Shown piece by piece: positions 643 to 29,099 of a stretch of DNA of 64,000 nt. Made by a program: the position numbers and the translations under genes. Every line of letters begins with the position of its first letter. The stretch's first letter is position 1. The DNA comes from Mycobacteriales bacterium (lineage in GTDB: Bacteria; Actinomycetota; Actinomycetes; BP-191): positions 2,505 through 66,504 of the forward strand of contig DASVPJ010000041.1 in assembly GCA_036382875.1 (NCBI GenBank), given 5' to 3'. The notes under the pieces were generated by a model. The model was not told the DNA's origin, searched no databases, and saw only the letters and a program-made list of their open reading frames with translations.

Positions 643-1476
643 ATGGTGCTCGGGATTCTGCACAACGCGTTCGAGCTCCGCTACGTGCTCGGGCGGTGGG
701 CGGGGTCGTTCACCGGCGCGTTCCGCGCGACCGTCCTCGGGCTCGTCACGGTGATCGCGGTGACGCGGCTCACCGGCGCGACGGTGACCGGGCGGCGGGT
801 CGAGGTGGTGGCCGGCTTCGCGGTGCTCGCCGCGGGCATGGCGTGGGGCGCGCGCCGCCGGCCGGTGCTCGCCGCCGTGGGCCTGCCGCTCGCCGTCGCG
901 ACGGGCGCGTGGGCGTGGACGCACCTCGACTGGTACTTCGTCGCGGTGACCTACCTGCACAACCTCGTGCCGTTCGTCTTCCTCTGGGACTGGTCGGCCC
1001 GGGCGCTCGCCGGCCGGGCGCGGGCGGCGTTCCGCGCGGTGCAGGGGGCGTGGCTGCTCGTCGTGCCGGCGCTGCTGCTGACCGGCGCGCTGCCGGTGCC
1101 GTCGCCGGCGTCGCAGCACGTGGCGTTCGCCGGGCCGCTCGCCGGCCACGTGGCGACCGTCGCGCCGCCGGCCTGGCGGGGGCCGGAGGCGGCGCGGCTG
1201 CTGGCGGTGTTCGCGTTCCTCCAGGTGCTGCACTACGCGTTCTGGTGCGCGTTCCTCCCGCGGCACGCGCTGGACGCGCCGCCGAGCCCGCGGGACGTCG
1301 CGACCCGCGCCGCGCTGTGGACCGGCGTGGCCGTCGTGGCGGCAGTTTTCGCGTTCGCCTACGTCGCGTCGTGGTCGTCCACGAAGATGGCGTACACGTC
1401 CCTGGCGAGCTACCACGCGTACGTCGAGTACGCGGTCCTGGCGCTCGTCGTGTTCCGACCCGTTGGAGAGAGATGA
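643..1476 (+). CDS. Integral membrane protein, hypothetical (start uncertain, may lie upstream of ATG 643)
   Basis: Frame of ORF 205..1476; only the part downstream of about 540 has coding character (GC3-rich, multiple TM helices: VLGLVTVIAVTRL, FAVLAAGMAW, LLVVPALLLTGAL, VAVVAAVFAFAYVA); N-terminal 110 aa of the listed ORF is antisense to the 214..545 gene. Confidence 0.6.
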   Translation: MVLGILHNAFELRYVLGRWAGSFTGAFRATVLGLVTVIAVTRLTGATVTGRRVEVVAGFAVLAAGMAWGARRRPVLAAVGLPLAVATGAWAWTHLDWYFVAVTYLHNLVPFVFLWDWSARALAGRARAAFRAVQGAWLLVVPALLLTGALPVPSPASQHVAFAGPLAGHVATVAPPAWRGPEAARLLAVFAFLQVLHYAFWCAFLPRHALDAPPSPRDVATRAALWTGVAVVAAVFAFAYVASWSSTKMAYTSLASYHAYVEYAVLALVVFRPVGER

Positions 1477-1622
1477 CCGTGGTGCTCGCCGACGCGGCCC
1501 CCACCGGCGCGGGGCTCGCGATCGTCGGCGTCATCCTGCTGGCGTTCGTCGCGATCGTGATCGCGGCCGTGTTCTTCTCGGTGCGCTTCCTCCTGCGGCG
1601 GGGGCGGCGCGGTCAGTCCTGA
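1473..1622 (+). CDS. Small single-TM protein (49 aa)
   Basis: ATG 1473 overlaps the TGA of the upstream gene (ATGA coupling); GGAGAG SD; GC3-rich; MTVVLADAAPTGAGLAIVGVILLAFVAIVIAAVFFSVRFLLRRGRRGQS is one TM helix plus a basic tail. Confidence 0.5.
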   Translation: MTVVLADAAPTGAGLAIVGVILLAFVAIVIAAVFFSVRFLLRRGRRGQS

Positions 1623-2056
1623 GCGCGGACGAACGAGAACTTCCCGTCCGGCTCCAGCACGCCGATCCGCACGTCGGCGAGGTCGCCGATGCCCTCGTTG
1701 CGCGCCGCCTCGAGGACCTCGTCGCGGGTGATGCGTTCGATCCGCAACGCCTCGTCCACCCACTTGCCGCGGTTCACGACGACGACCGGCCGGCCCTCCA
1801 GCACGTCGCGCGCCCGGCGCGAGCGGAACGTCAGCCACGACCCCAGCAGCGCGAGGAACCCGAACGTGCTCACCGCCAGGATCGCGCCGGTGACGCTGTA
1901 GTCCTCCTGCGTGACGCCCTGCTGCACGAGGTCGCCGATCGTGACGAGCACGATCATCTCGAACGCCGACATCTCCACGAGCTCGCGCTTGCCCAGCGCG
2001 CGGGTGAACAGCAGCAGGAACGCGTAGACCGCGGCCGCGCGCCACACGATGTCCAT
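1613..2056 (-). CDS. DUF421 (YetF-like) membrane protein
   Basis: 147 aa; N-terminal TM helices then C-terminal YetF-type domain (RITRDEVLEAARNEGIGDLADVRIGVLEPDGKFSFV); start TGATG-coupled to upstream gene. Confidence 0.8.
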   Translation of the reverse strand: MDIVWRAAAVYAFLLLFTRALGKRELVEMSAFEMIVLVTIGDLVQQGVTQEDYSVTGAILAVSTFGFLALLGSWLTFRSRRARDVLEGRPVVVVNRGKWVDEALRIERITRDEVLEAARNEGIGDLADVRIGVLEPDGKFSFVRAQD

Positions 2057-2574
2057 CAGGGCATCACCGTCGTCCGGATCGTGACGCCCACGACCGGGAC
2101 GCCGTTCGCCAGGACGGCCACCTCGCCGGTGGTGCCGCGCTGGCGGTTCGGCCCGGACCGCGTGTCGAAGTAGATGCGCAGCACGTCACCGGGCGGCGGG
2201 TCGAACTCCCACATCACGTGCGTCGCCGTCGCGGTCTCCATGCTCGGCGCGGGCTGCACGCCGTTCTCGTCGAACAGCGCGAAGTAGCCGGTCGAGACGC
2301 GCACCTGGATCGGCTCGCCGCCGAAGCCGCCGCCCTTGTGCACCCGCACCGACAGCGGCACCGCGTGGCCGGGGCGCGTGACGCGCGGGTACTCGACGAC
2401 GAGGTCGTAGCCGCCGCCGCTGGCCCGCGCGTGGGCCGTGCGCACGCCGAGGCGTCCGGTCGCGCCGAGCGCGAGCACCGTGGCGAACAGGGTGAGCAGC
2501 ACCCGGCGGGCCAGCCGGGCGCGCTTGAGCTCGTCGACGCGCGGCGCGACCGGCGCGGTGTCCGTCACGATCAT
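2056..2574 (-). CDS. Membrane-anchored/secreted hypothetical protein (operon partner of YetF-like gene)
   Basis: ATG at 2574 preceded by GAGGGGGA SD; N-terminal signal-anchor (RVLLTLFATVLALGATG); stop overlaps YetF start (TGATG). Confidence 0.65.
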   Translation of the reverse strand: MIVTDTAPVAPRVDELKRARLARRVLLTLFATVLALGATGRLGVRTAHARASGGGYDLVVEYPRVTRPGHAVPLSVRVHKGGGFGGEPIQVRVSTGYFALFDENGVQPAPSMETATATHVMWEFDPPPGDVLRIYFDTRSGPNRQRGTTGEVAVLANGVPVVGVTIRTTVMP

Positions 2575-2635
2575 GGTCGTCCCCCTCGGGGGGCAGTCGG
2601 GAAACCTGTCACACCCCGGCCGTACGCTCCTGGGC

Positions 2636-5413
2636 ATGTCCTTCGCCCGCCGTCTGGCCGCCGTCGCGCTCGGGGTCGCGCTGCTCGCGCCCGGCGCGCC
2701 CGCGCGCGCCGACGACGTGCCGCCGCCGCAGGAGCTCACCGCGGTCAACGCGCTGCCCCCCGGCGAGAACGGCCACTTCTCCGTCGCGGGCCAGGCCGCG
2801 GGCATGGCGTCGGGCGACCCGGACGACTACGGCCCGCACGTGGACGACCAGCGCGAGCTGTTCTGGGAGGGGCGGCACAAGCCCGGGTCGTTCGCCACGG
2901 TGTCCGGGCCGCCCGTCTCCCCGCGCGCGGGCGTGCGGATCTACCGCGACGACTACGGCGTGCCTGTCATCTACGGCGACACCGCGGCGGACGTGTGGTT
3001 CGGCGCCGGCTACGCCGCCGGCGTGGACCGGCTGTTCCTGGCCGACGCCGTGCGGCGGCTGGGGCGGGGGACGTTCGGCGAGCTGGGCGGGCCTTCGTAC
3101 GTGCCGGACGACGTGCGCGTGCGGCTCGGCGCGTACACCACCGAGGAGTACGACGCGATGCTCGCCGCGCTGCCCGCCGAGGGGCGGACCGCGATCGAGG
3201 CGTACAGCGCGGGCCTCGAGGCGCGGATCGGCGAGGTGCGGCTCGACCCGGCCCAGCTCCCGGCCGAGTACGTCCTGCTGTCCTCGCTGCCCGAGCCGTG
3301 GAGCGTCGTCGACACGCTCGCCGCGGGCGTGTACATCACGCGCTACGTCGCCTCCGCCGGGCTGCTCGAGCCCGAGCCGTTGCCGGTGCTGCGCGCGCTC
3401 GACACCGCGCTCGGGCGCGAGGCGGCGCTGGACGCGTTCGCCGACCTGTTCCCGCGCGAGGACCCGCTGACCACGACGACCGTGCCGAAGGCGGAGGGCG
3501 TGTTCGACGTCGACCCGGCGCCGACGGCGCAGCGGGACGCGGTGTACCGCGCGGCGGCGACGTACGCACTGTCGCTGCCGCCGGAGCTGGACGAGGGGCC
3601 GGGCACCGGCGCGTACCCGGTGCCCGCCTCGCCGCCGCCGCCCGTACCGCCCGCTCCCGGCCCACCCTTCGCGGCGGCGGCCGCCCTGCGCGGCGTGACC
3701 GCGCACCTGCGGTCGTTCGTGGGCGCGCTGCGCGGGGGGTCGTTCGGCTTCGCGGTCGCCGGCTCCCGCACCGCCAACGGCGCCCCGATGCTGATGAGCG
3801 GCCCGCAGCTCGGCTACTCCTACCCGACGCAGCTCTGGGAGCTCGAGGTGCACGGCGGCGGCTACGACGCCCGCGGCGTCTCCGTCCCGAGCCTGCCGAC
3901 GGTCGGCATCGGCTACGGGCAGCGGACCGCGTGGGCGCTGACGACCGGCTACTCGCGCACCATCGACTCGTTCGTCGAGACGACCCGGCGCACCGACGGC
4001 GCGCTGCAGTACCTGCACGGCGGGCAGTGGCACGACGCGGACTGCCGCACCGAGACCGTCCGCTACCGCACCGAGGTCCAGGGCGTGCCGGCCGGCCCGC
4101 CGGTGTTCGAGACCGACGTCGAGGCGTGCCGTACGGTGCACGGCCCGGTCGTCGCCGCGACGGCGGACGGCACCCGCGCGCGGTCGGTCGCCATCGCGAT
4201 GTGGCGGCGCGAGCTGGAGACCGTCAGCGGGCTGCTCGCGTTCGACCGCGTCGACACGTTCGCCGAGTTCGACCGCGCGGTCGCGCAGGTGACCTGGAAC
4301 GAGAACGTCCTCTACGCCGACGCCGACGGCCACATCGCGTACTGGCACCCCGGGCTGCTCCCGCGCCGCGCGCCGGCCGCCGACCCGCGCTTCCCCAGCC
4401 CGGGCACCGGCGGGTGCGACTGGCAGGGTCTGCTGCCGCGCGCCGCGCTGCCGCACGCGGTCGACCCCGCGCAGGGCTACCTGGCGAACTGGAACTCCCA
4501 GCCCGCGCACGGCTTCGACGACGCGCTCGGCGACCCGTACTCCGCGCGGCCCGCGGGCCAGGCCGGCCGGATCGACGTGCTCGACCGGCTGCTGAGCGGC
4601 GCGCACGGGCTCGACGTCCCCGCCGTCGAGGCGCTGGCCATCCGGATGGGGCGCACCGACCAGCGGTGGGGCTCCTTCCGGCCGGTGCTCGCCTCGCTGG
4701 CCGCCGCGGCCGGCGACTCGGCCGAGCGCCGCGCGGCGCTCGACCTGCTGCTCGGCTGGGACGGCACGGCGTTCGGGCCCGGCGCGGGGACCTCGCCGGG
4801 CGAGCCCGAGGACGAGACGGTGACCGACGGGCCGGCGCCGACGCTGTTCCGCGAGCTGGCCGACCGGCTGCGCGACCGGGTGCTCGGCGACCTGCCCGAG
4901 GCGGTGGTGCTGCGCGCCGACCAGGTGCCGGTCGCGGGCGACCCGTACGAGACCACGTCGCACGTCTTCGACGCCTCGCCGGCCGACAACCTCGTGCTGC
5001 GCGTGCTGACCGGCCGCACCGACCCGCCGGTGCGGCGCGACTGGCTCGCCGGCCGCACGCCGGCCGCGGTGCTGCGCGCCGCGCTGGACGACGCGGTCGC
5101 CGCGCTGCGCGACCGCTACGGCGCCGACCCCGCCTCGTGGCGCGCGCCGCACCCGCGCCGGCCGGTCGAGTCGCTCACCGGCGTCGTCGGGCCGTCGGTG
5201 ACCATGCCGTACGAGGACCGCGGCTCGTGGGAGCACATCGTGGCGTTCTCCCGGGCCGGCGCGCCCCCGCGCCCCGGGCCGCCGGCCCGCCCCGGCCGCG
5301 TCCCCGCGACCGGCCTGCCCGCCTGGCTGCCGGTGGCGGCGTTTGCCGCGGTGCTACCCGCCCTGTGGTCACGACGGACCCGGCGGCGGGGACCCGCGAC
5401 CTCCCCGCCGTAG
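2636..5413 (+). CDS. Penicillin amidase / acyl-homoserine-lactone acylase family protein (Ntn hydrolase, peptidase S45), secreted
   Basis: Signal peptide MSFARRLAAVALGVALLAPGAPARA; S45 hallmarks (GDTAADVWFGAGYAAGVDRLF; beta-subunit N-terminus GSFGFAVAGSRTANGAPMLMSGPQLGYSYP aligning to SNMWVIG...NGPQFGW of PGA); Pro-rich C-terminal tail with hydrophobic anchor. Confidence 0.85.
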   Translation: MSFARRLAAVALGVALLAPGAPARADDVPPPQELTAVNALPPGENGHFSVAGQAAGMASGDPDDYGPHVDDQRELFWEGRHKPGSFATVSGPPVSPRAGVRIYRDDYGVPVIYGDTAADVWFGAGYAAGVDRLFLADAVRRLGRGTFGELGGPSYVPDDVRVRLGAYTTEEYDAMLAALPAEGRTAIEAYSAGLEARIGEVRLDPAQLPAEYVLLSSLPEPWSVVDTLAAGVYITRYVASAGLLEPEPLPVLRALDTALGREAALDAFADLFPREDPLTTTTVPKAEGVFDVDPAPTAQRDAVYRAAATYALSLPPELDEGPGTGAYPVPASPPPPVPPAPGPPFAAAAALRGVTAHLRSFVGALRGGSFGFAVAGSRTANGAPMLMSGPQLGYSYPTQLWELEVHGGGYDARGVSVPSLPTVGIGYGQRTAWALTTGYSRTIDSFVETTRRTDGALQYLHGGQWHDADCRTETVRYRTEVQGVPAGPPVFETDVEACRTVHGPVVAATADGTRARSVAIAMWRRELETVSGLLAFDRVDTFAEFDRAVAQVTWNENVLYADADGHIAYWHPGLLPRRAPAADPRFPSPGTGGCDWQGLLPRAALPHAVDPAQGYLANWNSQPAHGFDDALGDPYSARPAGQAGRIDVLDRLLSGAHGLDVPAVEALAIRMGRTDQRWGSFRPVLASLAAAAGDSAERRAALDLLLGWDGTAFGPGAGTSPGEPEDETVTDGPAPTLFRELADRLRDRVLGDLPEAVVLRADQVPVAGDPYETTSHVFDASPADNLVLRVLTGRTDPPVRRDWLAGRTPAAVLRAALDDAVAALRDRYGADPASWRAPHPRRPVESLTGVVGPSVTMPYEDRGSWEHIVAFSRAGAPPRPGPPARPGRVPATGLPAWLPVAAFAAVLPALWSRRTRRRGPATSPP

Positions 5414-5489
5414 GGCCGAACGTCACCGAATCCGGACATCACCCGCCGCCCCCTCAAGACCCCGGGGGCCGGGGTCCGACCCGTTCTGC

Positions 5490-6407
5490 ATGCGTACGTT
5501 CCGGACCGCCGCCGCCCTCGCCGCCGCCGCCGTGCTGCTCCCCGGCGTCGCGGCCGCCGCCCTCCCGGCGCGGCTGGTGGCGGTGACGTACGACGCCGCC
5601 GGCACCGCGCGGCTCTACGCGCTCGTCAACGGCCACCGCCGCGCGCTCGGCCTGCCCGCGCTGGCGCTCGACACCCGGCTGGCCGGCATCGCGCGCACCT
5701 GGACGCTCGGCATGGCGGCGAGCGGCGACCTCGCGCACAACGACGCGCTGTTCACGTCCGCGACGCACGCGCTGCTGCGGATCAAGACGTTCGGCGAGAA
5801 CGTCGCGTACGCCTCGCGCGGCGTCGACTCCGCGCACCAGGTGCTGCTCGACAGCCCGCACCACCGCGAGAACATCGAGAGCCGCGCGTACGCCGTCGCC
5901 GGGTTCGCCGTCGCGGTCGACGCGAAGGGCGTCACCTGGGTGACCGAGGACTTCGGCAGCCGCCCGGTCGCGCCCGCCGCCACCACCGCACCGGCGCCCC
6001 GTCCGGTCGCGGCGCCCACCCCGGCCCGCGCGGCGAGCACCGCCGCCCGCCCCGCCGCGCGGGCGGCGATCGCGGCCCGCCGCCCGGCGCCGGTCGCCGC
6101 GCGGCCGGCCGCCCCCGCGGCACCGGCGTACGTCCCGCCGGCCTGGCCGCACCGGGCGTCGCCCACCGACCGCGTGGACCCGGCCGCCACCGGGCCGGCC
6201 ACCGCGCCGGCCGCCGCCACCGGCACCGCCGCCGGCGCCCCGCGGACCGCCACCCTCGACGCCACCCGCGCCGGAGGCCACCGGACGACCCCCGCCGCGA
6301 CCCCGCTCGCCGCCGTCGCCACCGCGCTCGCCGCGGCCACCGTCGCCGCCCTCGCCCGCGCGCTGCGCCCGCGCGCGCGGCGGCGTTCGGCCACACTGGC
6401 GGCGTGA
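5490..6407 (+). CDS. CAP (SCP/PR-1-like) domain secreted protein with Ala/Pro-rich C-terminal region
   Basis: Signal peptide MRTFRTAAALAAAAVLLPGVAAAA; CAP motifs (GHRRALGLPAL, HHRENIESRAYAVAGFAV); long low-complexity PA-rich linker and C-terminal hydrophobic anchor. Confidence 0.75.
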   Translation: MRTFRTAAALAAAAVLLPGVAAAALPARLVAVTYDAAGTARLYALVNGHRRALGLPALALDTRLAGIARTWTLGMAASGDLAHNDALFTSATHALLRIKTFGENVAYASRGVDSAHQVLLDSPHHRENIESRAYAVAGFAVAVDAKGVTWVTEDFGSRPVAPAATTAPAPRPVAAPTPARAASTAARPAARAAIAARRPAPVAARPAAPAAPAYVPPAWPHRASPTDRVDPAATGPATAPAAATGTAAGAPRTATLDATRAGGHRTTPAATPLAAVATALAAATVAALARALRPRARRRSATLAA

Positions 6408-6874
6408 CCGAGGAACGCGCCCTCGCCGCGCTGGACGCCGCCGGCGTCGCCTACCGCGTCGTCCGGCACGGCCCGGTCCGCAGCCTGGCCGAGGCCGCCG
6501 CCGCGCGCGGCGTGACGCCGGCCCAGGTCGTGAAGACGCTCGTCGTGCGCCGGGGCGAGGGCGACCACCTGTTCGTGCTGGTGCCGGGCGACCGGACGAT
6601 CTCCTGGCCGAAGCTGCGCGACCTGCTCGGCGTCAGCCGGCTGTCCCTGCCCGACGCCGGGGCGGCGCGCGACGCGACCGGCTACGAGCGCGGCACGATC
6701 ACGCCGTTCGGCTCGCTGGTGCAATGGCCTTCTATTGTCGACGAAAACGTTTCCGGGGAAATCACGCTCGGCGCCGGAGCGCACGGTGTCGCGGTCGCCG
6801 TGGAATCGGCGGACATCGTCGCCGCATTGAACGCCACCGTCGCCGACGTCTCCGAACCCGAGGACGCCGGATAA
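6404..6874 (+). CDS. ybaK: YbaK/ProX-type aminoacyl-tRNA deacylase
   Basis: GTG start overlapping upstream TGA (GTGA); family pattern (VKTLVVRRGEGDHLFVLVPGDR...WPKLRDLLGV...ITPFG). Confidence 0.8.
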   Translation: MTEERALAALDAAGVAYRVVRHGPVRSLAEAAAARGVTPAQVVKTLVVRRGEGDHLFVLVPGDRTISWPKLRDLLGVSRLSLPDAGAARDATGYERGTITPFGSLVQWPSIVDENVSGEITLGAGAHGVAVAVESADIVAALNATVADVSEPEDAG

Positions 6875-6884
6875 CCGCGCCCCG

Positions 6885-7925
6885 CTAAACGCAGCCCGCG
6901 CGCCGCCCGATCCGGCGCAACCCGGTCAGGTCGCCCGCGCCGTAGAGCGCCGACCCCACCGGCTCCAGCTCCGGCCGCATCATCTGGTGGTCCGCGTCGA
7001 CGTGGTCGAGCCCCATCACGTGCCCCAGCTCGTGCAGCAGCAGCTCGCCCTCCGTCCGCCCGGCGCCGAACCCGGAGCCGACGCCCGCCAGCCGCGCGAC
7101 GTCGACCACCACGAACCCGTGCCGGATCCGCGGCCGCCCCCCGCGCCCGGCGACCGGCTGCTCGAACCCGCCCGTCGCCGCGCGGCTGCCGCCGAGCAGC
7201 GCCGAGTCGGTGGCGTGGGTCCACGCGACGACGAGGTCGGCCTCGTACCGGAACCCGCGCCCGCCCGGCACGTAGCGCGTGCTGCCCAGCTCGCGGAAGC
7301 GCACCCCCGTCTCCCACGTGACCCGCCGCAACGCCTCCCGCAGGTCGGCCAGCGACGTGCCGCGCGCGGCGGCGGCGTTGACGCGGAACGTCACGACGGC
7401 GCACGGGTTCCACCGCGCGGGGACGCCGCGGGCGAGGAACAGGTACCGGTACGCGCGCGGGTCGCCGAGCCCGGTGTCCGTCACCTCGAGCGCCGCCGGC
7501 TCGCTCGCCGCGCCCGCGCCGGCCGCGAGCGGCACCACGGCCCGGACCTCGTACGTCGCCGCCTCCCGCCGCGCCAGCCGGGCGACCGCGGTGCCCGCGT
7601 GGTCGAGGACGACGCGCGCCACGACCGCCCACTCGGGCCCGGTCGCGAGCTGCACCTCGGCCTCGCGCCCGGCGAACGCGGGCGCGGTCACGGTGACGTC
7701 GACCGGCGCGTTCGGCGGCACCAGCCGCGGCGACGCGGCGACGGAGACGGCGGCCCCGAGCGGGGCGACCCGCCCGGGCGGCGCGCCCGGCGGCCCGCCC
7801 CTCAACGGGCTCGCCGGGGCGCCCGGTCCGGCACCCGGTCCGGCAGCCGGCGCGATGCCCGGCGCCGCGAGAACGGCCGCGGCGGCCACGATCACCGCGC
7901 GCCGGACGGCACACGAGAAGTCCAT
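6885..7925 (-). CDS. Secreted zinc metalloprotease (zincin, matrixin/snapalysin-like HExxHxxGxxH)
   Basis: ATG 7925 with GGGGGA SD; signal peptide MDFSCAVRRAVIVAAAAVLAAPGIAPAAG; catalytic motif HELGHVMGLDHVDADHQMM (Met-turn). Confidence 0.8.
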   Translation of the reverse strand: MDFSCAVRRAVIVAAAAVLAAPGIAPAAGPGAGPGAPASPLRGGPPGAPPGRVAPLGAAVSVAASPRLVPPNAPVDVTVTAPAFAGREAEVQLATGPEWAVVARVVLDHAGTAVARLARREAATYEVRAVVPLAAGAGAASEPAALEVTDTGLGDPRAYRYLFLARGVPARWNPCAVVTFRVNAAAARGTSLADLREALRRVTWETGVRFRELGSTRYVPGGRGFRYEADLVVAWTHATDSALLGGSRAATGGFEQPVAGRGGRPRIRHGFVVVDVARLAGVGSGFGAGRTEGELLLHELGHVMGLDHVDADHQMMRPELEPVGSALYGAGDLTGLRRIGRRAGCV

Positions 7926-19766: not shown

Positions 19767-19851
19767 GCGGAGAGGGACAGGCCCGAGCGGGAAGCCCAGG
19801 TCAGACGGGTGCGCCGCCAGGGACTTGAACCCCGAACCCGCGGATTAAGAG
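19767..19851. repeat. attL: 85-bp direct repeat of tRNA-Lys 3' half plus 3' flank
   Basis: Near-identical (2 differences) to 28985..29070, which overlaps the intact tRNA-Lys; covers anticodon loop to acceptor 3' end plus about 35 bp. Confidence 0.7.
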
Positions 19852-20158
19852 GCAGGGCTACTACGTCCGAGGCAGTCCGGGGTAGTTGGTGACACCCCGC
19901 CTGACCTGCGACTTTGCGGAAGGCCGTGTCGTCGCAGTTCGGCACATCCGGGCTTGTCCGGCACCGCTTGTTATCGCAGTGTTAGCGCACTCATCGCGAT
20001 CGCGGGCGGCGCGGCCCGGGTCGCCCAACCGCGCCACAGGTCGTCGCGGCGCCGCGTGCGTAGGGTGTGCCCTTGAGGGTGAGCGGGTGGCGCATCAACG
20101 CGTATCATGCGATGACGAGGTGGCTTCTCGTTACGGGTAGTGCGATCGGGGGCAAGCC

Positions 20159-20533
20159 TTGTTCAGAAAAAAGAGCCGCGCTCGTGAGGCGTCGGGCGAG
20201 TCTTTACGAACCATTGAAAAGCTTAACCCACTGTACTATGAGCGGGTACAGGGCCGGCTTCGTCTTTGGGACGCGCCGGATGCGTCCATCGAGAACGCTG
20301 CGACGAGCACGGCGAACGCGATCTTCAACGTGGCGATGAATTACTTTGGCCGACTCGGTGACGACCGCGCCGGGCGAGCCTTCGCTCTACAGTTCGAAAA
20401 ACGTGTCGCGGGCGACCTGACCGTCGCGGACAAGATGATCGATCAACTCATCTCGTACGACGCTGACACTCAGGAGTTTCTTACGACTCTGCTCCAGCGC
20501 TTGGAGGATCTCGCAGGTCGCCCGCCCACCTAG
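20159..20533 (+). CDS. Hypothetical protein (island cargo)
   Basis: TTG start; mixed AT-ending codons typical of the island; 124 aa; no recognised domain. Confidence 0.4.
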   Translation: MFRKKSRAREASGESLRTIEKLNPLYYERVQGRLRLWDAPDASIENAATSTANAIFNVAMNYFGRLGDDRAGRAFALQFEKRVAGDLTVADKMIDQLISYDADTQEFLTTLLQRLEDLAGRPPT

Positions 20534-20878
20534 ATCGCACGCTGTTCTCGTGCTCCGTTGAATACCAACCTGAGCGAACGTGCCCGCGGCGAGCTCGGTG
20601 TCGATGCGGCATTAAACGCCAGCGCCTCGGCGGATCGTCTCACCGGCCTGCGGCTGAACGTCCTGCCGCTCGCGTCGCGCCAGTCGTACAGGTAGCCGCG
20701 GCCGCGCGGCGGATGCGAGGCTGGAGAGCGCGGGGTCGTGCCATCGACGGGTCGTCTCGTCGTCGGGCGACGACGTGAAGATGAGGATGCGGCGCACCCG
20801 CCGCAGGTCCGGCCGGGTTGCCAGCAATCCGCCACATCCGGCCTCAACGCGATGTTGAACGCCCCGCTCCGGGGAGCA

Positions 20879-20996
20879 AGCCGCAGGTCAGACGGGTGCG
20901 CCGCCAGGGACTTGAACCCTGGATCCGCGGACTTAAAGGCAGGGCAACTTCCGAGGCAGTCCGGGGCAGTTGGTGACAACCGCCTGACCTGCGGTT
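20879..20996. repeat. Degenerate internal copy of the att/tRNA-3' repeat plus conserved island-internal flank
   Basis: Shares caggtcagacgggtgcgccgccagggacttgaaccc with the att repeats and, after a diverged stretch, gcagggc...gaggcagtccgggg.agttggtgaca..cgcctgacctgcg with the island side of attL (19852..19910). Confidence 0.5.
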
Positions 20997-21481: not shown

Positions 21482-22588
21482 ATGGCACTTCGTCCTACCA
21501 TCTTCATCGGATCCTCTGCGGAGGGAGAGCTCCTGGCGAACCAGCTTCAACTCAACCTCAGCAGGACGTGTCGACCTGATGTCTGGAGCCAGGGAGTCGT
21601 TCGCGTCGGCTCGGCAACACTGCAAAGTCTCGTAGACGCAAGTCATCGGTACGACTTTGCTGCCCTCCTTCTTACACCGGACGACGTTATAGAACAGCAT
21701 GGCGAAACTGGATTCGCTCCGCGTGACAATGTGATCTTTGAAGCCGGTCTGTTTGTCGGTGCGCTGGGCCCGGGCCGCACGTTCTTGGTGCATTGCCGTG
21801 AAGATGTGCTCAACCTCCCATCTGATCTCCTCGGAGTCACCATGGCCACGTATGACCGGCCAAGCCCAGGGGACAACTTGGAAGCGATCATGGGTCCGCC
21901 CGCCACGAAGATCATGAACGCGATTCAGCATGTCGAGTCAACAGGAGTTGGCCCGAACTACCTGACTGCCTTCAGTGCGTTGGCGCGCGAAGTCCCAAGG
22001 GATGAGCTAGTCAGGATCATCACCGAAGCTAGCGCGCCCAGTGATATGCGCTCGCCGCTTAGTCCCGTAGCCTTGCGGACCTTGGAGCGAGAACTTGAGT
22101 CCAGGGGCCACAGTCGGGATCGCGAGCTTACCCGCGACGATCTGCGGCCAGAGATCCGTAAATATAATGATATTCGAGAGACGACGATTCCGGGTGTTAG
22201 CCGAACGAACAGGCTGGAGGAAACCCTCGGAGAGATAGAGTATAAAGCCCTACGCCAGAAATATCCGGCAAGTCTCACCGCGGAACTACTGGACGGCGCC
22301 GATGGGGACAGAGTGGCAGGCCTCGTTCTAGCTCGCGTAAGGCCCGACAAAGAGAACTTCGACGCAGTGTTGCGCATAATAGAGACGCCTCGGTCGAACT
22401 ATGAGCATGCCAAGGCCATTGAGACAATGATACAGATGAAGAAGTCAGACAAACTCACAGATGACCAGGTGCGGGCTGCCCGACGCGTTGCTGAAGAATT
22501 GCTCGACAAGCGTGTGACGCTAATAGTGGACGGCGACCCCAGCCGGGTTGTGTTGGTCGAAACACTTGCGAGAGAGCTCAATCGGTGA
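21482..22588 (+). CDS. TIR-like (PF10137/COG4271-type) nucleotide-binding domain protein with uncharacterised helical C-terminal domain
   Basis: N-terminal signature (TIFIGSSAEG...DFAALLLTPDDVIEQHG...RDNVIFEAGLFVGALGPGRTFLV...LPSDLLGV); AT-ending codons; C-terminal 230 aa with no recognised motif. Confidence 0.7.
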   Translation: MALRPTIFIGSSAEGELLANQLQLNLSRTCRPDVWSQGVVRVGSATLQSLVDASHRYDFAALLLTPDDVIEQHGETGFAPRDNVIFEAGLFVGALGPGRTFLVHCREDVLNLPSDLLGVTMATYDRPSPGDNLEAIMGPPATKIMNAIQHVESTGVGPNYLTAFSALAREVPRDELVRIITEASAPSDMRSPLSPVALRTLERELESRGHSRDRELTRDDLRPEIRKYNDIRETTIPGVSRTNRLEETLGEIEYKALRQKYPASLTAELLDGADGDRVAGLVLARVRPDKENFDAVLRIIETPRSNYEHAKAIETMIQMKKSDKLTDDQVRAARRVAEELLDKRVTLIVDGDPSRVVLVETLARELNR

Positions 22589-22778: not shown

Positions 22779-23843
22779 TCAGCGGCTAGCAGCTAGCCGG
22801 TCACGCATCTCACGTGCGGCCGTCTTCCAGTCCTGCTCCGCCGACACGCTGAGGCACCGATCGAGGAGCCGCCGGGCGACATCGTTGAGCTCGGCCTCAC
22901 GAATCGCTTCCTCGACAGCGATGAGCGCCATGGCAAGCCGACGTCGCGTGCCCTCCTCGGCGAGCGTCAGATGCTCGAACGCGCGAACGGCGCCGGCGCG
23001 GTCGAGCTGGACCAACGCTGGCACGAGCCTTCGTGGGATGCCCACGTCATCGGCATTATTGGCGACCTCGACGGCGCGGATCAGGAACTCGTCCCCGACG
23101 GGTGCGCGTACCAACCGGGGCAACGTGTCGAACGCAAGCCGTTGAACACCTTGCTCTGATGATTCGAGCAGCGCAAAGACGTCGTCCTCGTCTAACCCGC
23201 CCCGATCGGCGAGCAGCCGGATCGCGCGCTTGCGCGGCCCCTTGTCCTCAAGCTCGTCGGTCGCCAGCTCGACCAGTCGCTGGACGTCGGATGCCGACAG
23301 TTTGTCGGCATCGGCGACGGTGAGACGCAGCGCCGTTCGCACGTTGCGCTGCTGCACCAGCCGCATGCCGGCCTCGAAGAGGCCGCCGAGCTGCTCGCGG
23401 ATCTTCTGCTCGAAGGTCGCCGGAGTGAATGGTGCGACGGTCAACTGCCAGTCGTACTCGAGGGACCGGAGCACCTGGGTCATTCTACGGTCGCTCGGGT
23501 CGGTCACCCCGTCCAGGCTGCGCAGCTCGTTAAGGATGCGGTATTTCGCGTACGTGGCGTCCAGGCAGAGCACGAGGAACGGCGTGCCCGCTTGCAGCGC
23601 CGTGTCGAGTTCGGTGCGCCAGGTGAGGTCGCCGTAGTCCTCCACGACGACGAAGACGCAGATGTCCGCGTCGAGGACCGACGCACGGGAGTTGGCCTCG
23701 AACCGCGCGCCGACTGCGTTGCTGTACGTGATCGCGCCCTGGAGGTAGGTCATTGGCTGGCCGCCGACGTCACGAACGACCCGTTCGAAGTGTTCGAGTA
23801 CATTGCGCGTGTCCGCTGCGCCGCAGAGCATGATTCGGAGCAT
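22779..23843 (-). CDS. DUF4062-domain protein with C-terminal HEAT/ARM-like repeats
   Basis: ATG 23843 after GGGGG SD; DUF4062-like N-terminus (ADICVFVVVEDYGDLTWRTELDTALQAGTPFLVLCLD); helical repeats in C-terminal half; convergent with the TIR-like gene, with hairpin terminators between. Confidence 0.65.
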   Translation of the reverse strand: MLRIMLCGAADTRNVLEHFERVVRDVGGQPMTYLQGAITYSNAVGARFEANSRASVLDADICVFVVVEDYGDLTWRTELDTALQAGTPFLVLCLDATYAKYRILNELRSLDGVTDPSDRRMTQVLRSLEYDWQLTVAPFTPATFEQKIREQLGGLFEAGMRLVQQRNVRTALRLTVADADKLSASDVQRLVELATDELEDKGPRKRAIRLLADRGGLDEDDVFALLESSEQGVQRLAFDTLPRLVRAPVGDEFLIRAVEVANNADDVGIPRRLVPALVQLDRAGAVRAFEHLTLAEEGTRRRLAMALIAVEEAIREAELNDVARRLLDRCLSVSAEQDWKTAAREMRDRLAASR

Positions 23844-24225: not shown

Positions 24226-24504
24226 TTAGTCGTCGCACGCCTTGCGGATTGCGTCAACGAACGGCAGATCCTCGTCCTTCGTGTCGTCACTCAAAGACTC
24301 GAACGGCCGAATGGCGTCGTGTTCGCGGCCGCTTGACTCCATCCATGCCGCCCATGCGTCATGCACATCGGCGGCAGTTACGGCCGCGCCCTTTGCGCGC
24401 GCGAGTACGGCATACATCAGGAACAGACTTGTTGATTCTGCTGGAATAAGAGCTTCCGGTACTTGTGAGCGGATCTTGTCCGCGAGGTCTGTGATGTAGC
24501 TCAT
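24226..24504 (-). CDS. Small hypothetical protein (92 aa), third gene of TIR operon
   Basis: ATG overlaps stop of upstream membrane-protein gene (ATGA); acidic C-terminus; no recognised domain. Confidence 0.5.
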   Translation of the reverse strand: MSYITDLADKIRSQVPEALIPAESTSLFLMYAVLARAKGAAVTAADVHDAWAAWMESSGREHDAIRPFESLSDDTKDEDLPFVDAIRKACDD

Positions 24505-24998
24505 CGGACAACCAGATACGTTGCCAGCACGAGATAGACTACCCCGAATGCGACCGGCGTCACTTGCTCGATGAAGCCGAGCTCGGCGTAGCGATCGCGC
24601 CACTTGAGCTTGGTCGGAGGGTCGGTGTTCGGCCTCAAGACGACCCACTCGTCCACGAACGGACGCACCGTGAAGTGGTCCTGTTCGATGCGGTTGATCA
24701 CGGTGAACTTCGCTGAATTCAACTTCCGATAACTCCGGAGAAGGAGCCACCAGGCGCCGGCGAGAAGTACTCCAGCAAAGGCTGCAACCACGAGAACGAA
24801 CCGGTCAGGTGCGGCCTGGCCGCCGCTGTCGCTGACCCTTGTGGCAAAGAGCGCAAGACCGGCAACAAGGCCGGTCTGCAAGGTCAGAAAGAAGCTGTTC
24901 GCCGAGGCTCGCCTTGCGGATACCCGATCCGCCATCTCAACCGCAAGCGAGTACAACGCGAGAACTGTGGCCTCGGAACTAGCGGCTGGGACAGTCAT
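24501..24998 (-). CDS. Multi-TM membrane protein (about 165 aa), candidate effector (SLATT-like?) of TIR operon
   Basis: ATG 24998 one nt after TIR gene stop (alternative GTG 25013); TM helices FFLTLQTGLVAGLALFA, FVLVVAAFAGVLLAGAWWLLL, VTPVAFGVVYLVLATYLVV; AT-ending codons. Confidence 0.6.
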   Translation of the reverse strand: MTVPAASSEATVLALYSLAVEMADRVSARRASANSFFLTLQTGLVAGLALFATRVSDSGGQAAPDRFVLVVAAFAGVLLAGAWWLLLRSYRKLNSAKFTVINRIEQDHFTVRPFVDEWVVLRPNTDPPTKLKWRDRYAELGFIEQVTPVAFGVVYLVLATYLVVR

Positions 24999-24999
24999 C

Positions 25000-25419
25000 T
25001 CAGCGCGAGCCACCGATAAGTAGCTTCAGATTGTCCCAGGTCCAGTTATACATCTTGTCGGTTGACTTGGCGGAGGTGGGGCGCGTGCAGGTTCCGGTGG
25101 CCCGCCCACGTAGCAGGAAGTACGACTTGCCTTCCTCCTGGGCAATCGATACTTCAGCGCTGACTCCGGTGGCGGTGTGCGTGTGGTGACCGCACAGCAC
25201 TACAACCTGGTCGACGCCCTTGATCCGTCTCCGCGCGCGCGACCGCCAATCAGGCGACGCTTCTTTGATGGACATGTCAACTACCTCGAATGGCGAATCC
25301 GAGTTCTTTGCCTGGCCAATCAGCAAGGTCTTGAGATCACTGTCGTTGTCATAGTCGAAACTTACAAACACCCGTGTCTTCGCCACGCCTCTCCCCTGTC
25401 TGGTGCTGTACATACCCAT
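25000..25419 (-). CDS. TIR-domain protein, ThsB-like (DUF1863/MTH538 TIR-like)
   Basis: RVFVSFDYDNDSD...VVVLCGHHTHTATGVSAEVSIAQEEGKSYFLL matches ThsB/DUF1863 pattern (vFfSFhy.D...LIG..T..s.WV..EI); AT-ending codons; start ATG 25419 (TTG 25443 also possible). Confidence 0.7.
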   Translation of the reverse strand: MGMYSTRQGRGVAKTRVFVSFDYDNDSDLKTLLIGQAKNSDSPFEVVDMSIKEASPDWRSRARRRIKGVDQVVVLCGHHTHTATGVSAEVSIAQEEGKSYFLLRGRATGTCTRPTSAKSTDKMYNWTWDNLKLLIGGSR

Positions 25420-27028: not shown

Positions 27029-27130
27029 CCCGACCCCGTTCCTCGACCTCTGCTGTTCTCCCGACCCCTTCGTCTCTTCTTCTTCGCTTCTCTCCTGATG
27101 TTGTTGATCTTGTTGCTGACCTGATCCGCT

Positions 27131-27338
27131 CCACCCCGCTGACCTGCCCTCCCTTCTCCAATGTGCGTGTCGAGGGAGTGCCACATGTTCGGGGGTGCGA
27201 AGCAGCCCCGAACATGTGGCACGACCGACCCCCGGCGGAGTGCAAAACCGCAGGTCAGCGGGGTGGAGCGGCCTCCGAAAAAGATCTTCGAGGGTGGTTC
27301 CTCGGGTGGTGCCTCGGTGCGTGGACCGAGGCACCACC
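27131..27338. promoter_or_regulatory. Cluster of strong nested palindromes upstream of xis-int (candidate regulatory/recombination-accessory region)
   Basis: 17-bp inverted repeat ccaccccgctgacctgc (27131-27147) and gcaggtcagcggggtgg (27250-27266) enclosing a perfect 17-bp stem hairpin (27178-27222); a further 14-bp stem hairpin at 27305-27338; contains CTGACCTG also present in att core and att-adjacent arms. Confidence 0.5.
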
Positions 27339-27475: not shown

Positions 27476-27745
27476 ATGAGCGCCATCGACCCGGCGTCGT
27501 TGCCGCCCGTTCTCGACGTCCCCACGGCCGGCCGGCTGCTCGGACTCGGCCGCTCCGCGGCCTACGACCTCGCCGTCGCCGAGCTCTGGCCGACGCCGGT
27601 CCTGCGGCTCGGACGGCGGCTGCGGATCCCGACCGCTCCGTTGCTGGCGCTTCTCGGCCTCGACCCTGGTCCGCTGTCGCAGTCCGGTGGCATGGTGACC
27701 GGGTCACCAACTGCCCCGGCTGCCTCCGAAGGAGGCAGGCCATGA
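27476..27745 (+). CDS. xis: Excisionase/Xis-family HTH DNA-binding protein
   Basis: GAGAGGAGAG SD; MerR/AlpA-like HTH (LDVPTAGRLLGLGRSAAYDLAVAELWPTPVLRLGRRLRIP); stop overlaps integrase ATG (ATGA). Confidence 0.7.
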   Translation: MSAIDPASLPPVLDVPTAGRLLGLGRSAAYDLAVAELWPTPVLRLGRRLRIPTAPLLALLGLDPGPLSQSGGMVTGSPTAPAASEGGRP

Positions 27746-28974
27746 CGAAAGAGTCGGGCGTGTACCAGCGGCACTCACGGCGCTGCCCGCGCAACGCGGG
27801 CGGTCGTGGCTACGCGCCGCACCGGTGCACCGGCACGTGGTCCTACGTCATCGACGTGGGCCGGGACGCCAACAACGAGAGAAGGCAGGAGACGAAGGGA
27901 GGCTTTCCGACCAAGCGGGAAGCGGTCGAGCAGCGGCGCAAGCGTCTCGGCGAGCTGAGGTCGCGGACGGGCGAGGCGTACGGGACGACGGTCGGCGCGT
28001 ACCTGGAGCAGTGGCTGTCGTGGAAGCGCGGCCTGCGGGACAGCACCCGGCTGTCCTACCGGCAGCACCTGGACGACTACCTGGTCCCGGCGCTTGGGCA
28101 GTACCGGCTCGCCGACCTGGAACGTCGGCCGGAGCTGATCGAGCAGATGTTCTCCAACCTCGTCACCGGGGTCAGCGGCAAGCCGTTGTCGCCGGCGTCG
28201 GTGCGGCGCATCTACTCGACGCTGCGCAGCGCGCTCAACAGCGCGGTGAAGCGGCGGATGCTGGCGCACAACCCGGCGTTGCACGTCGAGCTGCCGCGGA
28301 CGGCGCTGTACCGGCCGGTCGTGTGGGACGCGCAGCAGGTCGGCATCTTCCTCGACGCGATCCAGGGCCACCGGCTCTACGCGCTCTACGGCGTCGTCGT
28401 CCTGACCGGACTCCGGCGCGGCGAGGCGCTCGGGCTCCGGTGGGAGGACGTGGACCTGGACGAGGGCGTGCTGCACGTACGCCAGCAGGTCGTCGCGGTC
28501 GGCACGGAGGTCCGCATCGGCCCGCCGAAGACGAAGGCGGGGGAGCGGACGGTCGCGCTGTCCGAGGCGACCGTGGCGATGCTGCGCGAGCACCAGGCGC
28601 GGCAACGGCGCGAACGGCTCGCGTGGGGCGAGGCGTGGCACGACAGCGGCCACGTGTTCACCTACGAGGACGGCCGGATGCTGCGGCCGGACCACGTGAC
28701 GCACCTGTTCCGCAGGCTGGCGAAGGAGGCGGGGCTGCCGCTGATCCGGCTGCACAACCTGCGGCACACCAGCGCGAGCCTCGCGCTGGCGGCGGGCGTC
28801 CCGATGAAGGTCGTCAGCGACCGGCTCGGCCACTCCAGCGAGTCGATCACCTCGGCGCTCTACACGGTCGTCGTGCCCGCTGTGGCACGCGAGGCGGCCG
28901 AGCGGATCGCCAACGTCGTGCTGCTGCCGAGGGCACGGAGCGACGAGCACGAAGCCGTGTTAGCGCGGCGTTAG
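27742..28974 (+). CDS. int: Tyrosine-type site-specific integrase
   Basis: C-terminal catalytic region (LRRGEALGLRWEDVD, HNLRHTSASLALAAGVPMKVVSDRLGHSSESITSALY); adjacent to tRNA-Lys and attR. Confidence 0.9.
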   Translation: MTKESGVYQRHSRRCPRNAGGRGYAPHRCTGTWSYVIDVGRDANNERRQETKGGFPTKREAVEQRRKRLGELRSRTGEAYGTTVGAYLEQWLSWKRGLRDSTRLSYRQHLDDYLVPALGQYRLADLERRPELIEQMFSNLVTGVSGKPLSPASVRRIYSTLRSALNSAVKRRMLAHNPALHVELPRTALYRPVVWDAQQVGIFLDAIQGHRLYALYGVVVLTGLRRGEALGLRWEDVDLDEGVLHVRQQVVAVGTEVRIGPPKTKAGERTVALSEATVAMLREHQARQRRERLAWGEAWHDSGHVFTYEDGRMLRPDHVTHLFRRLAKEAGLPLIRLHNLRHTSASLALAAGVPMKVVSDRLGHSSESITSALYTVVVPAVAREAAERIANVVLLPRARSDEHEAVLARR

Positions 28975-28984
28975 CGCATGACCG

Positions 28985-29070
28985 GGAGAGGGCCAGGCCC
29001 GAGCGGGAAAGCCCAGGTCAGACGGGTGCGCCGCCAGGGACTTGAACCCCGAACCCGCGGATTAAGAGTC
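28985..29070. repeat. attR: direct repeat overlapping 3' half of tRNA-Lys
   Basis: Partner of 19767..19851. Confidence 0.7.
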
Positions 29071-29099
29071 CGCTGCTCTGCCAATTGAGCTAGCGGCGC
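29027..29099 (-). tRNA. tRNA-Lys (anticodon CTT), CCA not encoded
   Basis: Minus-strand cloverleaf GCGCCGC-TA-GCTC-AATTGGCA-GAGC-A-GCGGA-CTCTTAA-TCCGC-GGGTT-CGGGG-TTCAAGT-CCCTG-GCGGCGC-A; 73 nt. Confidence 0.85.

Follow-up and report, generated by a model that had tools for sequence, protein, structure and literature searches.

A predicted TIR-type NAD+ hydrolase joined to an uncurated HEAT-like domain on a tRNA-Lys island of a Mycobacteriales bacterium

A 64,000-nucleotide stretch of DNA from a Mycobacteriales bacterium (GenBank assembly GCA_036382875.1, contig DASVPJ010000041.1, positions 2,505 to 66,504 of the forward strand; hereafter the window, whose numbering is used for positions) carries a gene for a 368-amino-acid (aa) protein, here called TIR-X, in which an N-terminal TIR domain is followed by a C-terminal domain to which we give the name X. 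With a probability of about one half, TIR-X is a stand-alone, mobile abortive-infection effector that hydrolyzes nicotinamide adenine dinucleotide (NAD+), with X replacing the STING, SAVED or cyclic nucleotide monophosphate (cNMP) sensor of related proteins and driving the clustering of the TIR domains. In the uninfected cell the protein would be inactive, as its active site would require TIR-TIR packing, being built from E87 and the pocket residues of one subunit and from D115 of the neighboring subunit. Domain X would serve as the sensing and assembly module, through self-association and/or through binding of a trigger, for which a phage protein or a phage structure of several subunits is the likeliest candidate; the clustering of TIRs driven in this way would switch on the NAD+ hydrolase (NADase), NAD+ would be depleted and the infection aborted. 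We infer the NADase activity, its switching on by clustering, the kind of trigger and the role against phage alike from sequence, predicted structure and context.

The TIR-X gene is an uninterrupted open reading frame (ORF) with an ATG start in the ORF list of the window (Table 1), and the same gene call is present, intact, in three independent public assemblies; one source, a Mycobacteriales metagenome-assembled genome, labels it 'TIR domain-containing protein'. A preliminary description of the window, drawn from its letters and ORF list, had assigned the N-terminus to the PF10137 type of TIR domain, and the matches from Pfam, PADLOC, NCBIfam and the PDB agree on this. Pfam PF10137 covers aa 7-125 (E=1.5e-25; 90 bits against a cutoff of 24.7 bits; profile positions 2-118 of 119), while two PADLOC models extend over aa 4-151: the 'Effector TIR' of cyclic-oligonucleotide-based antiphage signaling systems (CBASS; E=5e-38) and PycTIR of the pyrimidine cyclase system for antiphage resistance (Pycsar; E=2e-27), the latter being matched only in its TIR part (positions 151-285 of 288). 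The NCBIfam model for Cap12 (NF050172) scores 89.6 bits against an equivalog cutoff of 450 bits, and over aa 3-129 only. The nearest solved structures are the Cap12 protein SfSTING (7un8, E=1e-18), PycTIR (8jsj, E=3e-17) and another Cap12 (9lmq, E between 1e-17 and 1e-18). The motifs on which the first assignment had leaned lie at aa 65-68 (TPDD), aa 81-96 (RDNVIFEAGLFVGALG) and aa 112-119 (LPSDLLGV).

The NADase pocket of SfSTING is formed by F6, W33, F37, L47, S10, R78 and N80, with E84 as the catalytic residue and D110 contributed by the opposing TIR (PMC9402430). Transfer of these residues through a HMMER alignment to 7un8, whose chain numbering is offset by 8, places F6, S10, W33, L47, R78, N80, E84 and D110 at F8, S12, W35, L50, R81, N83, E87 and D115 of TIR-X, respectively. 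The catalytic glutamate, whose absence would have counted against a TIR-like enzyme in the preliminary description, is thus found at E87; along with W35, L50, N83 and D115 it is invariant in 18 PF10137 relatives (38-68% identity), and F8, S12 and R81 are nearly so. The retention of the trans-acting D115 suggests that activity in TIR-X depends on TIR-TIR packing, as it does in SfSTING. The closest relatives of the TIR part (P0054-P0072, relatives of window positions 21482-21925) are PF10137 proteins of 220-250 aa at 42-54% identity, and their C-terminal tails are short and mutually different, coiled-coil-like in some and of another type in others; these tails suggest a wider set of 'TIR plus variable tail' proteins.

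The remainder of the protein had been described as a single helical domain of 230 aa, and is better divided into a linker of about 45 aa and domain X of about 170 aa, the shared part of which is bounded by the family hidden Markov model (HMM) at aa ~197-364. The accompanying statement that the C-terminus matches nothing holds for curated families but not beyond them, as X is HEAT/ARM-like by structure and belongs to a widespread uncurated family; it is not a housekeeping family. The X region of TIR-X has no Pfam match even at E<=10 and no NCBIfam, PADLOC or PDB sequence match, and the family as a whole is without a model in Pfam-A (2025), NCBIfam r20 and PADLOC v2. HEAT_2 is matched by only 4 of 52 family members (best E=2.8e-5), TIR-X itself not being among them at E<=10. 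One borderline PDB match of the family profile, to the N-terminal domain of the bovine leukemia virus capsid (E=0.003), was judged to be due to chance. A word-indexed search of 5.8 billion proteins with the C-terminus returned TIR-X itself only, and with the family profile only four further proteins; an exhaustive HMMER search of 1.84 billion cluster representatives retrieved 48 proteins with X at E<1e-3.

All 48 are scored by a local family HMM at ~1e-40 to 1e-62 over ~165 residues, and the same model recognizes tandem copies of X, three in P0010 and two in P0023. No fewer than 80 proteins make up the family; the majority come from Actinomycetota (Streptomyces, Nocardia, Microbispora, Dactylosporangium, Kribbella and Cellulomonas), and others from Chloroflexi, Myxococcales and Acidobacteria. 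Four signatures run through it: YExxR..MxPGxxRT..M (Y228, R232, R241 and T242 in TIR-X), GxxGxR[IV]vaLA..Q..PD (G275 and R277), SRSAFEQYxAL (PRSNYEHAKAI in TIR-X, with Y307 and E308) and DR..L...iL.

AlphaFold gave a poor model from the single sequence, with a predicted local distance difference test (pLDDT) score of 45; with an alignment of 52 sequences, aa 130-368 were modeled at a pLDDT of 87 overall and above 90 for aa 219-368. The model of X is all-helical and comprises a hairpin (aa 218-258) followed by three helix-pair repeats (aa 263-367). At the level of fold it shows the stacked antiparallel helix pairs and the structural similarity expected of HEAT/ARM proteins, and a Foldseek search with it gave nothing significant in the PDB or BFVD. 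By this model, X is a divergent HEAT-like alpha-solenoid family without a relative of solved structure that is detectable by sequence.

The proteins that carry X fall into a small number of architectures. In 29 of 49 representatives, one to three predicted N-terminal hydrophobic, transmembrane (TM) helices are followed by X in a protein of 250-380 aa; five are fragments, and the rest combine X with a PF10137 TIR (3), TIR_2 (3), CHAT (3), patatin, metallopeptidases or P-loop NTPases. Genome searching with a strict motif pattern and a single genome for each species added 32 loci, in which the TM-X type accounts for 22 of the 31 with a confident X match and in which NACHT-X, KAP-NTPase-X and ParA-like-X-FGE-sulfatase appear as new architectures. 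In the NACHT, KAP, iSTAND and ParA-like NTPases, X is placed after the NTPase, C-terminally or internally and sometimes as two or three tandem copies (P0010 being an iSTAND protein with three), and sensor repeats are normally placed after the NTPase domain in such proteins. TM, TIR, patatin and caspase-like modules are the effectors by which cells are typically killed in CBASS, Pycsar, Thoeris and STAND (signal-transducing ATPases that have numerous domains) systems. That the N-terminal partners of X are cell-killing modules (TM, TIR_2, PF10137, CHAT, patatin and peptidases) weighs in favor of the main reading of TIR-X. Two of the fusions lie in settings like those of conflict systems: the iSTAND protein with three X copies (L046, positions 846-6467) is followed by a 320-aa gene and then by a metallopeptidase gene, and the ParA-like-X-FGE-sulfatase fusion is at L034, positions 3972-6248.

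The complete TIR-X architecture is rare, being found in only two of the 48 HMMER matches, P0002 (369 aa, 50% identity) and P0003 (332 aa, 41%), which together with TIR-X make three 50%-identity clusters among the 1.84 billion representatives. Two metagenome scans yielded no further orthologs, and tblastn against a plasmid collection matched the TIR part only, with no X or TIR-X. Conservation among the orthologs extends over the full length at 41-51% identity. The P0002 gene is flanked by the housekeeping genes pth, rplY, prs and glmU, and the P0003 gene adjoins thiamine genes. At the 32 genome loci, the only clusters present at more than three were the X gene itself and shadow ORFs overlapping it, and no Pfam or PADLOC family recurred among the 123 nearest neighbors. 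A single flanking gene recurs at three loci (L021, L037 and L041). Two of these are from Dactylosporangium species (L037/L041, positions 5423-6886), where the setting again recalls conflict systems and the X gene's stop is overlapped by a conserved gene of 485 aa; at the third, in Streptomyces polygonati (L021), a relative of that gene lies beside the X gene. The absence of a nucleotide cyclase, already remarked on in the preliminary description, was confirmed among the Pfam-annotated called genes within +/-10 kb. TIR-X is read as a single-polypeptide system because it has no conserved partner gene and no cyclase nearby; of the earlier proposal of a single-gene defense protein, the single-gene part agrees with what is seen at the three orthologs and the 32 loci, with the word 'defense' resting on inference.

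In comparison with known systems, TIR-X is a member of the PF10137 TIR domain family only, and fails the tests that define Cap12, PycTIR and ThsB. It shares with Cap12 (SfSTING, 7un8) and PycTIR (8jsj) the PF10137 subfamily, the catalytic Glu, the trans-acting Asp and the pocket except for F37, as well as the combination of a TIR effector and a regulatory domain in one polypeptide, and activation through TIR packing would be expected in each. The regulatory domains differ, being STING, SAVED or cNMP-binding domains in those proteins and a HEAT-like solenoid in TIR-X. Cap12 is encoded in an operon with a cGAS/DncV-like nucleotidyltransferase (CD-NTase), whereas no nucleotidyltransferase is found among the called genes within +/-10 kb of TIR-X or next to its orthologs; PycTIR has an N-terminal cNMP domain and an adjacent pyrimidine cyclase, whereas TIR-X has its TIR at the N-terminus and neither of these. 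Unlike ThsB, TIR-X does not match PF08937 or the PADLOC models for ThsB, and has no conserved operon partner.

Closer parallels in overall design are found in SpbK and Swarozyc. SpbK of B. subtilis is a clustering-activated protein that holds NADase and sensor in one polypeptide, its N-terminal domain binding the SPbeta portal (PMC12847820); in Swarozyc, a DUF4062 protein (DUF4062-AUX), it is the auxiliary domain that attaches to the portal of the phage (bioRxiv 10.64898/2026.05.01.722283). Both join a NADase to a non-catalytic sensing domain without a partner gene, as TIR-X would, and are activated by clustering on the phage portal; of this design, the genomic data show for TIR-X the lack of a conserved partner. 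The SpbK TIR belongs to a different clade, as SpbK is not among the PDB sequence matches of TIR-X, DUF4062 is not matched by TIR-X, and the sensor domains of both are unrelated to X. SARM1 (ARM-SAM-TIR) likewise couples an alpha-solenoid regulatory domain to a TIR NADase, but the order of domains is reversed, TIR-X lacks the SAM oligomerization domain, the two TIRs are of different subfamilies and X shows no detected sequence similarity to SARM1, making this an analogy only; it is a possible parallel for autoinhibition or metabolite gating of TIR-X (PMC7688312). According to the 2025 survey of Thoeris, stand-alone TIRs and those of CBASS and Pycsar are NAD+-depleting effectors and not signal producers. 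What would be new in TIR-X is a single-polypeptide NADase sensor-effector with an uncurated HEAT-like regulatory domain.

Several observations weigh against TIR-X as a stand-alone effector triggered by phage. The near-invariant Tyr, Arg, Arg, Thr, Arg and Glu of X would be unusual for a surface that has to track diverse phage proteins, and could instead belong to the HEAT structure, to a site for a small ligand or to a homotypic interface. No homolog of X or TIR-X was seen in phage or viral collections by tblastn, a motif scan of viral contigs or BFVD, and most genes of the X family sit amid metabolic or housekeeping genes and not in defense islands. In the NADase pocket there is one change, F37 of SfSTING being V39 in TIR-X. 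Lastly, the gene of the P0003 ortholog (L007, positions 358-1473) has an in-frame TGA in its TIR domain (L007, 418-420), which makes it either a pseudogene or the product of a sequencing error; the TGA comes directly after the GSSSEGEQLA motif, and the called P0003 protein hence starts inside the TIR.

The strongest of the alternatives, though we regard it as unlikely, is that X is a homotypic adaptor similar to Aravind's effector-associated domains (EADs). TIR-X, TM-X, CHAT-X and patatin-X would then be stand-alone effectors that X-X contacts bring to a sensor encoded elsewhere in the genome, a STAND, KAP or iSTAND NTPase which itself bears X. X resembles EADs in being non-enzymatic and all-helical, in being found in the EAD-rich Actinomycetota, Chloroflexi and Myxococcales (Kaur et al. 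2020, PMC7159879), and above all in the dual pattern that defines EADs, occurring at the level of the family both on core NTPases, iSTAND included, and on effector-only TIR, CHAT, patatin and TM proteins. The two genes of an EAD pair are in many cases neighbors, however, and no second X gene lies near the 32 genome loci, near six NTPase-X loci or in the 64-kb window; the 32 genome matches represent 32 species with one copy each by the strict motif pattern. Further, the EAD Pfam models do not match X, and at ~170 aa, in tandem in NTPases, X is closer in appearance to an array of sensor repeats than to a small adaptor. X recalls the sensor repeat arrays of STAND/Avs-type NTPases and the EADs in that it follows the NTPase domain in NACHT, KAP and iSTAND NTPases, is sometimes in tandem, is carried by diverse effectors as well and occurs in the same lineages; the differences are that none of the Pfam models described for EADs, TPR or HEAT matches X, that most X proteins have no NTPase and that no paired copy is nearby. 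A slightly less likely proposal is that TIR-X is the effector of a signaling pathway and that X binds a second messenger or metabolite, the candidates being an adenosine diphosphate ribose derivative from the ThsB-like gene of the same island, a cyclic nucleotide made elsewhere, or nicotinamide mononucleotide (NMN) or NAD+ as in the ARM domain of SARM1. The PF10137 TIRs characterized so far are signal-activated CBASS or Pycsar effectors, the fusion partners of X (TM, TIR, patatin and protease) mirror those of SAVED, STING and cNMP sensors, and an anionic ligand would be well served by the near-invariant Tyr, Arg, Thr and Glu. In SARM1, the ARM solenoid binds NAD+ and NMN and thereby gates the TIR (PMC7688312). 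Yet no signal-generating enzyme is linked to the X gene at 38 loci, the ThsB-like gene has operon partners of its own, 8xMP and DUF7701, in an operon that is not present beside P0002 or P0003, and G275 and R277 fit an ordinary structural HEAT motif. To our knowledge there is also no HEAT-type cyclic-nucleotide receptor. The proposal can be taken further, to X as a bacterial counterpart of SARM1-ARM and a sensor of a conserved ligand instead of a phage-protein receptor, in which a pocket of Y228, R232, R241, T242, R277 and E308 would recognize a metabolite, for example NMN, NAD+ or a nucleotide, and gate TIR NADases, membrane pores, CHAT proteases and patatin lipases in Actinomycetota and other developmentally complex bacteria; this we hold to be quite improbable.

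Still less likely is a role outside immunity, or decay, with TIR-X taking part in the development of actinobacteria, as a cell-death factor or a NAD+ glycohydrolase under regulation, or else being inert cargo of the island. The mostly non-defense neighborhoods of X genes, the enrichment of the family in developmentally complex bacteria and the stop codon that interrupts one ortholog are in its favor, but the gene is intact on three assemblies, all catalytic residues and the signature residues of X are kept, the orthologs are conserved from end to end, and TIR-X lies on an island beside a Thoeris-like operon. Least likely of those considered, by a narrow margin, is a two-gene module, for instance a toxin with an antitoxin or regulator, consisting of TIR-X and the convergent gene at 22779-23831 on the minus strand. 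The two genes are tail to tail on the same island, 190 bp apart, and an unannotated gene for 306-350 aa likewise adjoins every TIR-X ortholog; nonetheless, the genes adjoining the three TIR-X copies have no detectable mutual similarity (BLASTP E>1) and differ in orientation (convergent, divergent and co-directional). The neighbor in the window encodes 350 aa (365 aa from an upstream GTG), is not a member of the X family and is not conserved next to the TIR-X orthologs, and its GC content at third codon positions (GC3) is 82%, between those of the host and of the island cargo, against 61% for TIR-X. The preliminary description had named it a DUF4062 gene, which found no backing, as it has no match in Pfam, NCBIfam or PADLOC.

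The TIR-X gene is the horizontally acquired cargo of an integrase island at tRNA-Lys. While the GC content of the window is ~75%, it falls to 60-66% over 19.5-26 kb, where the TIR-X gene is the most deviant, with a GC content of 56.9% and a GC3 of 61% as opposed to 95-98% in flanking host genes. The foreign codon usage and the tRNA-Lys island given in the preliminary description are therefore both real: the direct repeats, the tRNA-Lys (CTT) and the integrase delimit an integrative island of ~9.2 kb (Table 1). A third, degenerate copy of the tRNA-Lys-derived repeat (83-91%; 20876-20981) is found 1.1 kb inside the island from the first copy (region 19769-19897), and an unannotated ORF of 124 aa (20159-20533) is enclosed by it and attL; the third repeat looks like a relic of an older tandem integration.

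The other TIR gene reported nearby corresponds to a ThsB-like gene of the PF08937 family, part of a Thoeris-like operon of three overlapping genes (24226-25413, minus strand) that lies 2.4 kb from the TIR-X gene. Its 8xMP and DUF7701 genes match no PADLOC system model, a look through the supplements of the 2025 survey of Thoeris turned up none of the operon's Pfam identifiers, and a literature search on '8xMP' gave nothing relevant. XRE-like and WhiB-like regulators are also carried on the island. In the stretch that separates the WhiB-like gene from the small ORF upstream of the integrase, a 21-nt near-perfect palindrome (27178-27222) is enclosed by the arms of a perfect 22-nt inverted repeat (27126-27147 and 27250-27271); this structure may serve the island in regulation or as a place of recombination.

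Table 1. Features of the TIR-X gene and its island, in window coordinates (dot, no strand assigned)
Feature	Position	Strand	Basis or remark
TIR-X protein coding sequence, complete (368 aa + stop)	21482..22588	+	ORF list; same gene called on 3 public contigs
TIR domain, Cap12/PycTIR type (aa 1-~152)	21482..21937	+	PF10137, PADLOC TIR effector models, PDB matches
E87 codon, predicted catalytic glutamate (= SfSTING E84)	21740..21742	+	Alignment to 7un8 and residue list in PMC9402430
D115 codon, LPSDLLGV motif (= SfSTING D110, predicted to complete the active site of the neighboring TIR)	21824..21826	+	7un8 alignment and PMC9402430
Helical linker (aa 153-196)	21938..22069	+	Conserved only among the three TIR-X orthologs; helices of medium confidence in the model
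Domain X (aa ~197-367)	22070..22582	+	Helical hairpin aa 218-258 and three HEAT-like repeats aa 263-367
Direct repeat at the island boundary, attL-like	19769..19851	.	83 nt, 96-98% identical to 28985-29068
DUF7701	24226-24504	-	PF24792
'8xMP' octameric membrane protein	24501-24998	-	PF24838
ThsB-like TIR	25000-25413	-	PF08937
Tyrosine integrase of the island	27742..28974	+	PF14657 and PF00589
attR-like direct repeat overlapping the 3' part of tRNA-Lys	28985..29068	.	Repeat pair
tRNA-Lys (CTT), integration target	29025..29099	-	ARAGORN

Among TIRs of the Cap12/PycTIR class, the characterized ones respond to a nucleotide signal that a partner enzyme makes and that turns them on. In TIR-X the catalytic apparatus is kept, a HEAT-like domain stands in place of the signal receptor and there is no partner gene, which points to a different route of triggering for the same weapon. 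That further sensor domains should be found on TIR effectors would be expected by a specialist; the most useful outcome is the X family itself together with its pattern of effector swapping. X is absent from Pfam, NCBIfam, PADLOC and the PDB, yet is common to TM, TIR, CHAT, patatin and STAND-NTPase proteins, and as such provides a concrete and testable lead. Should a sensor role for X be borne out, the proteins that carry it would form a new family acting in immunity or cell death from a single gene, in bacteria to which current defense catalogs give thin coverage, and X would offer a handle for finding their triggers.

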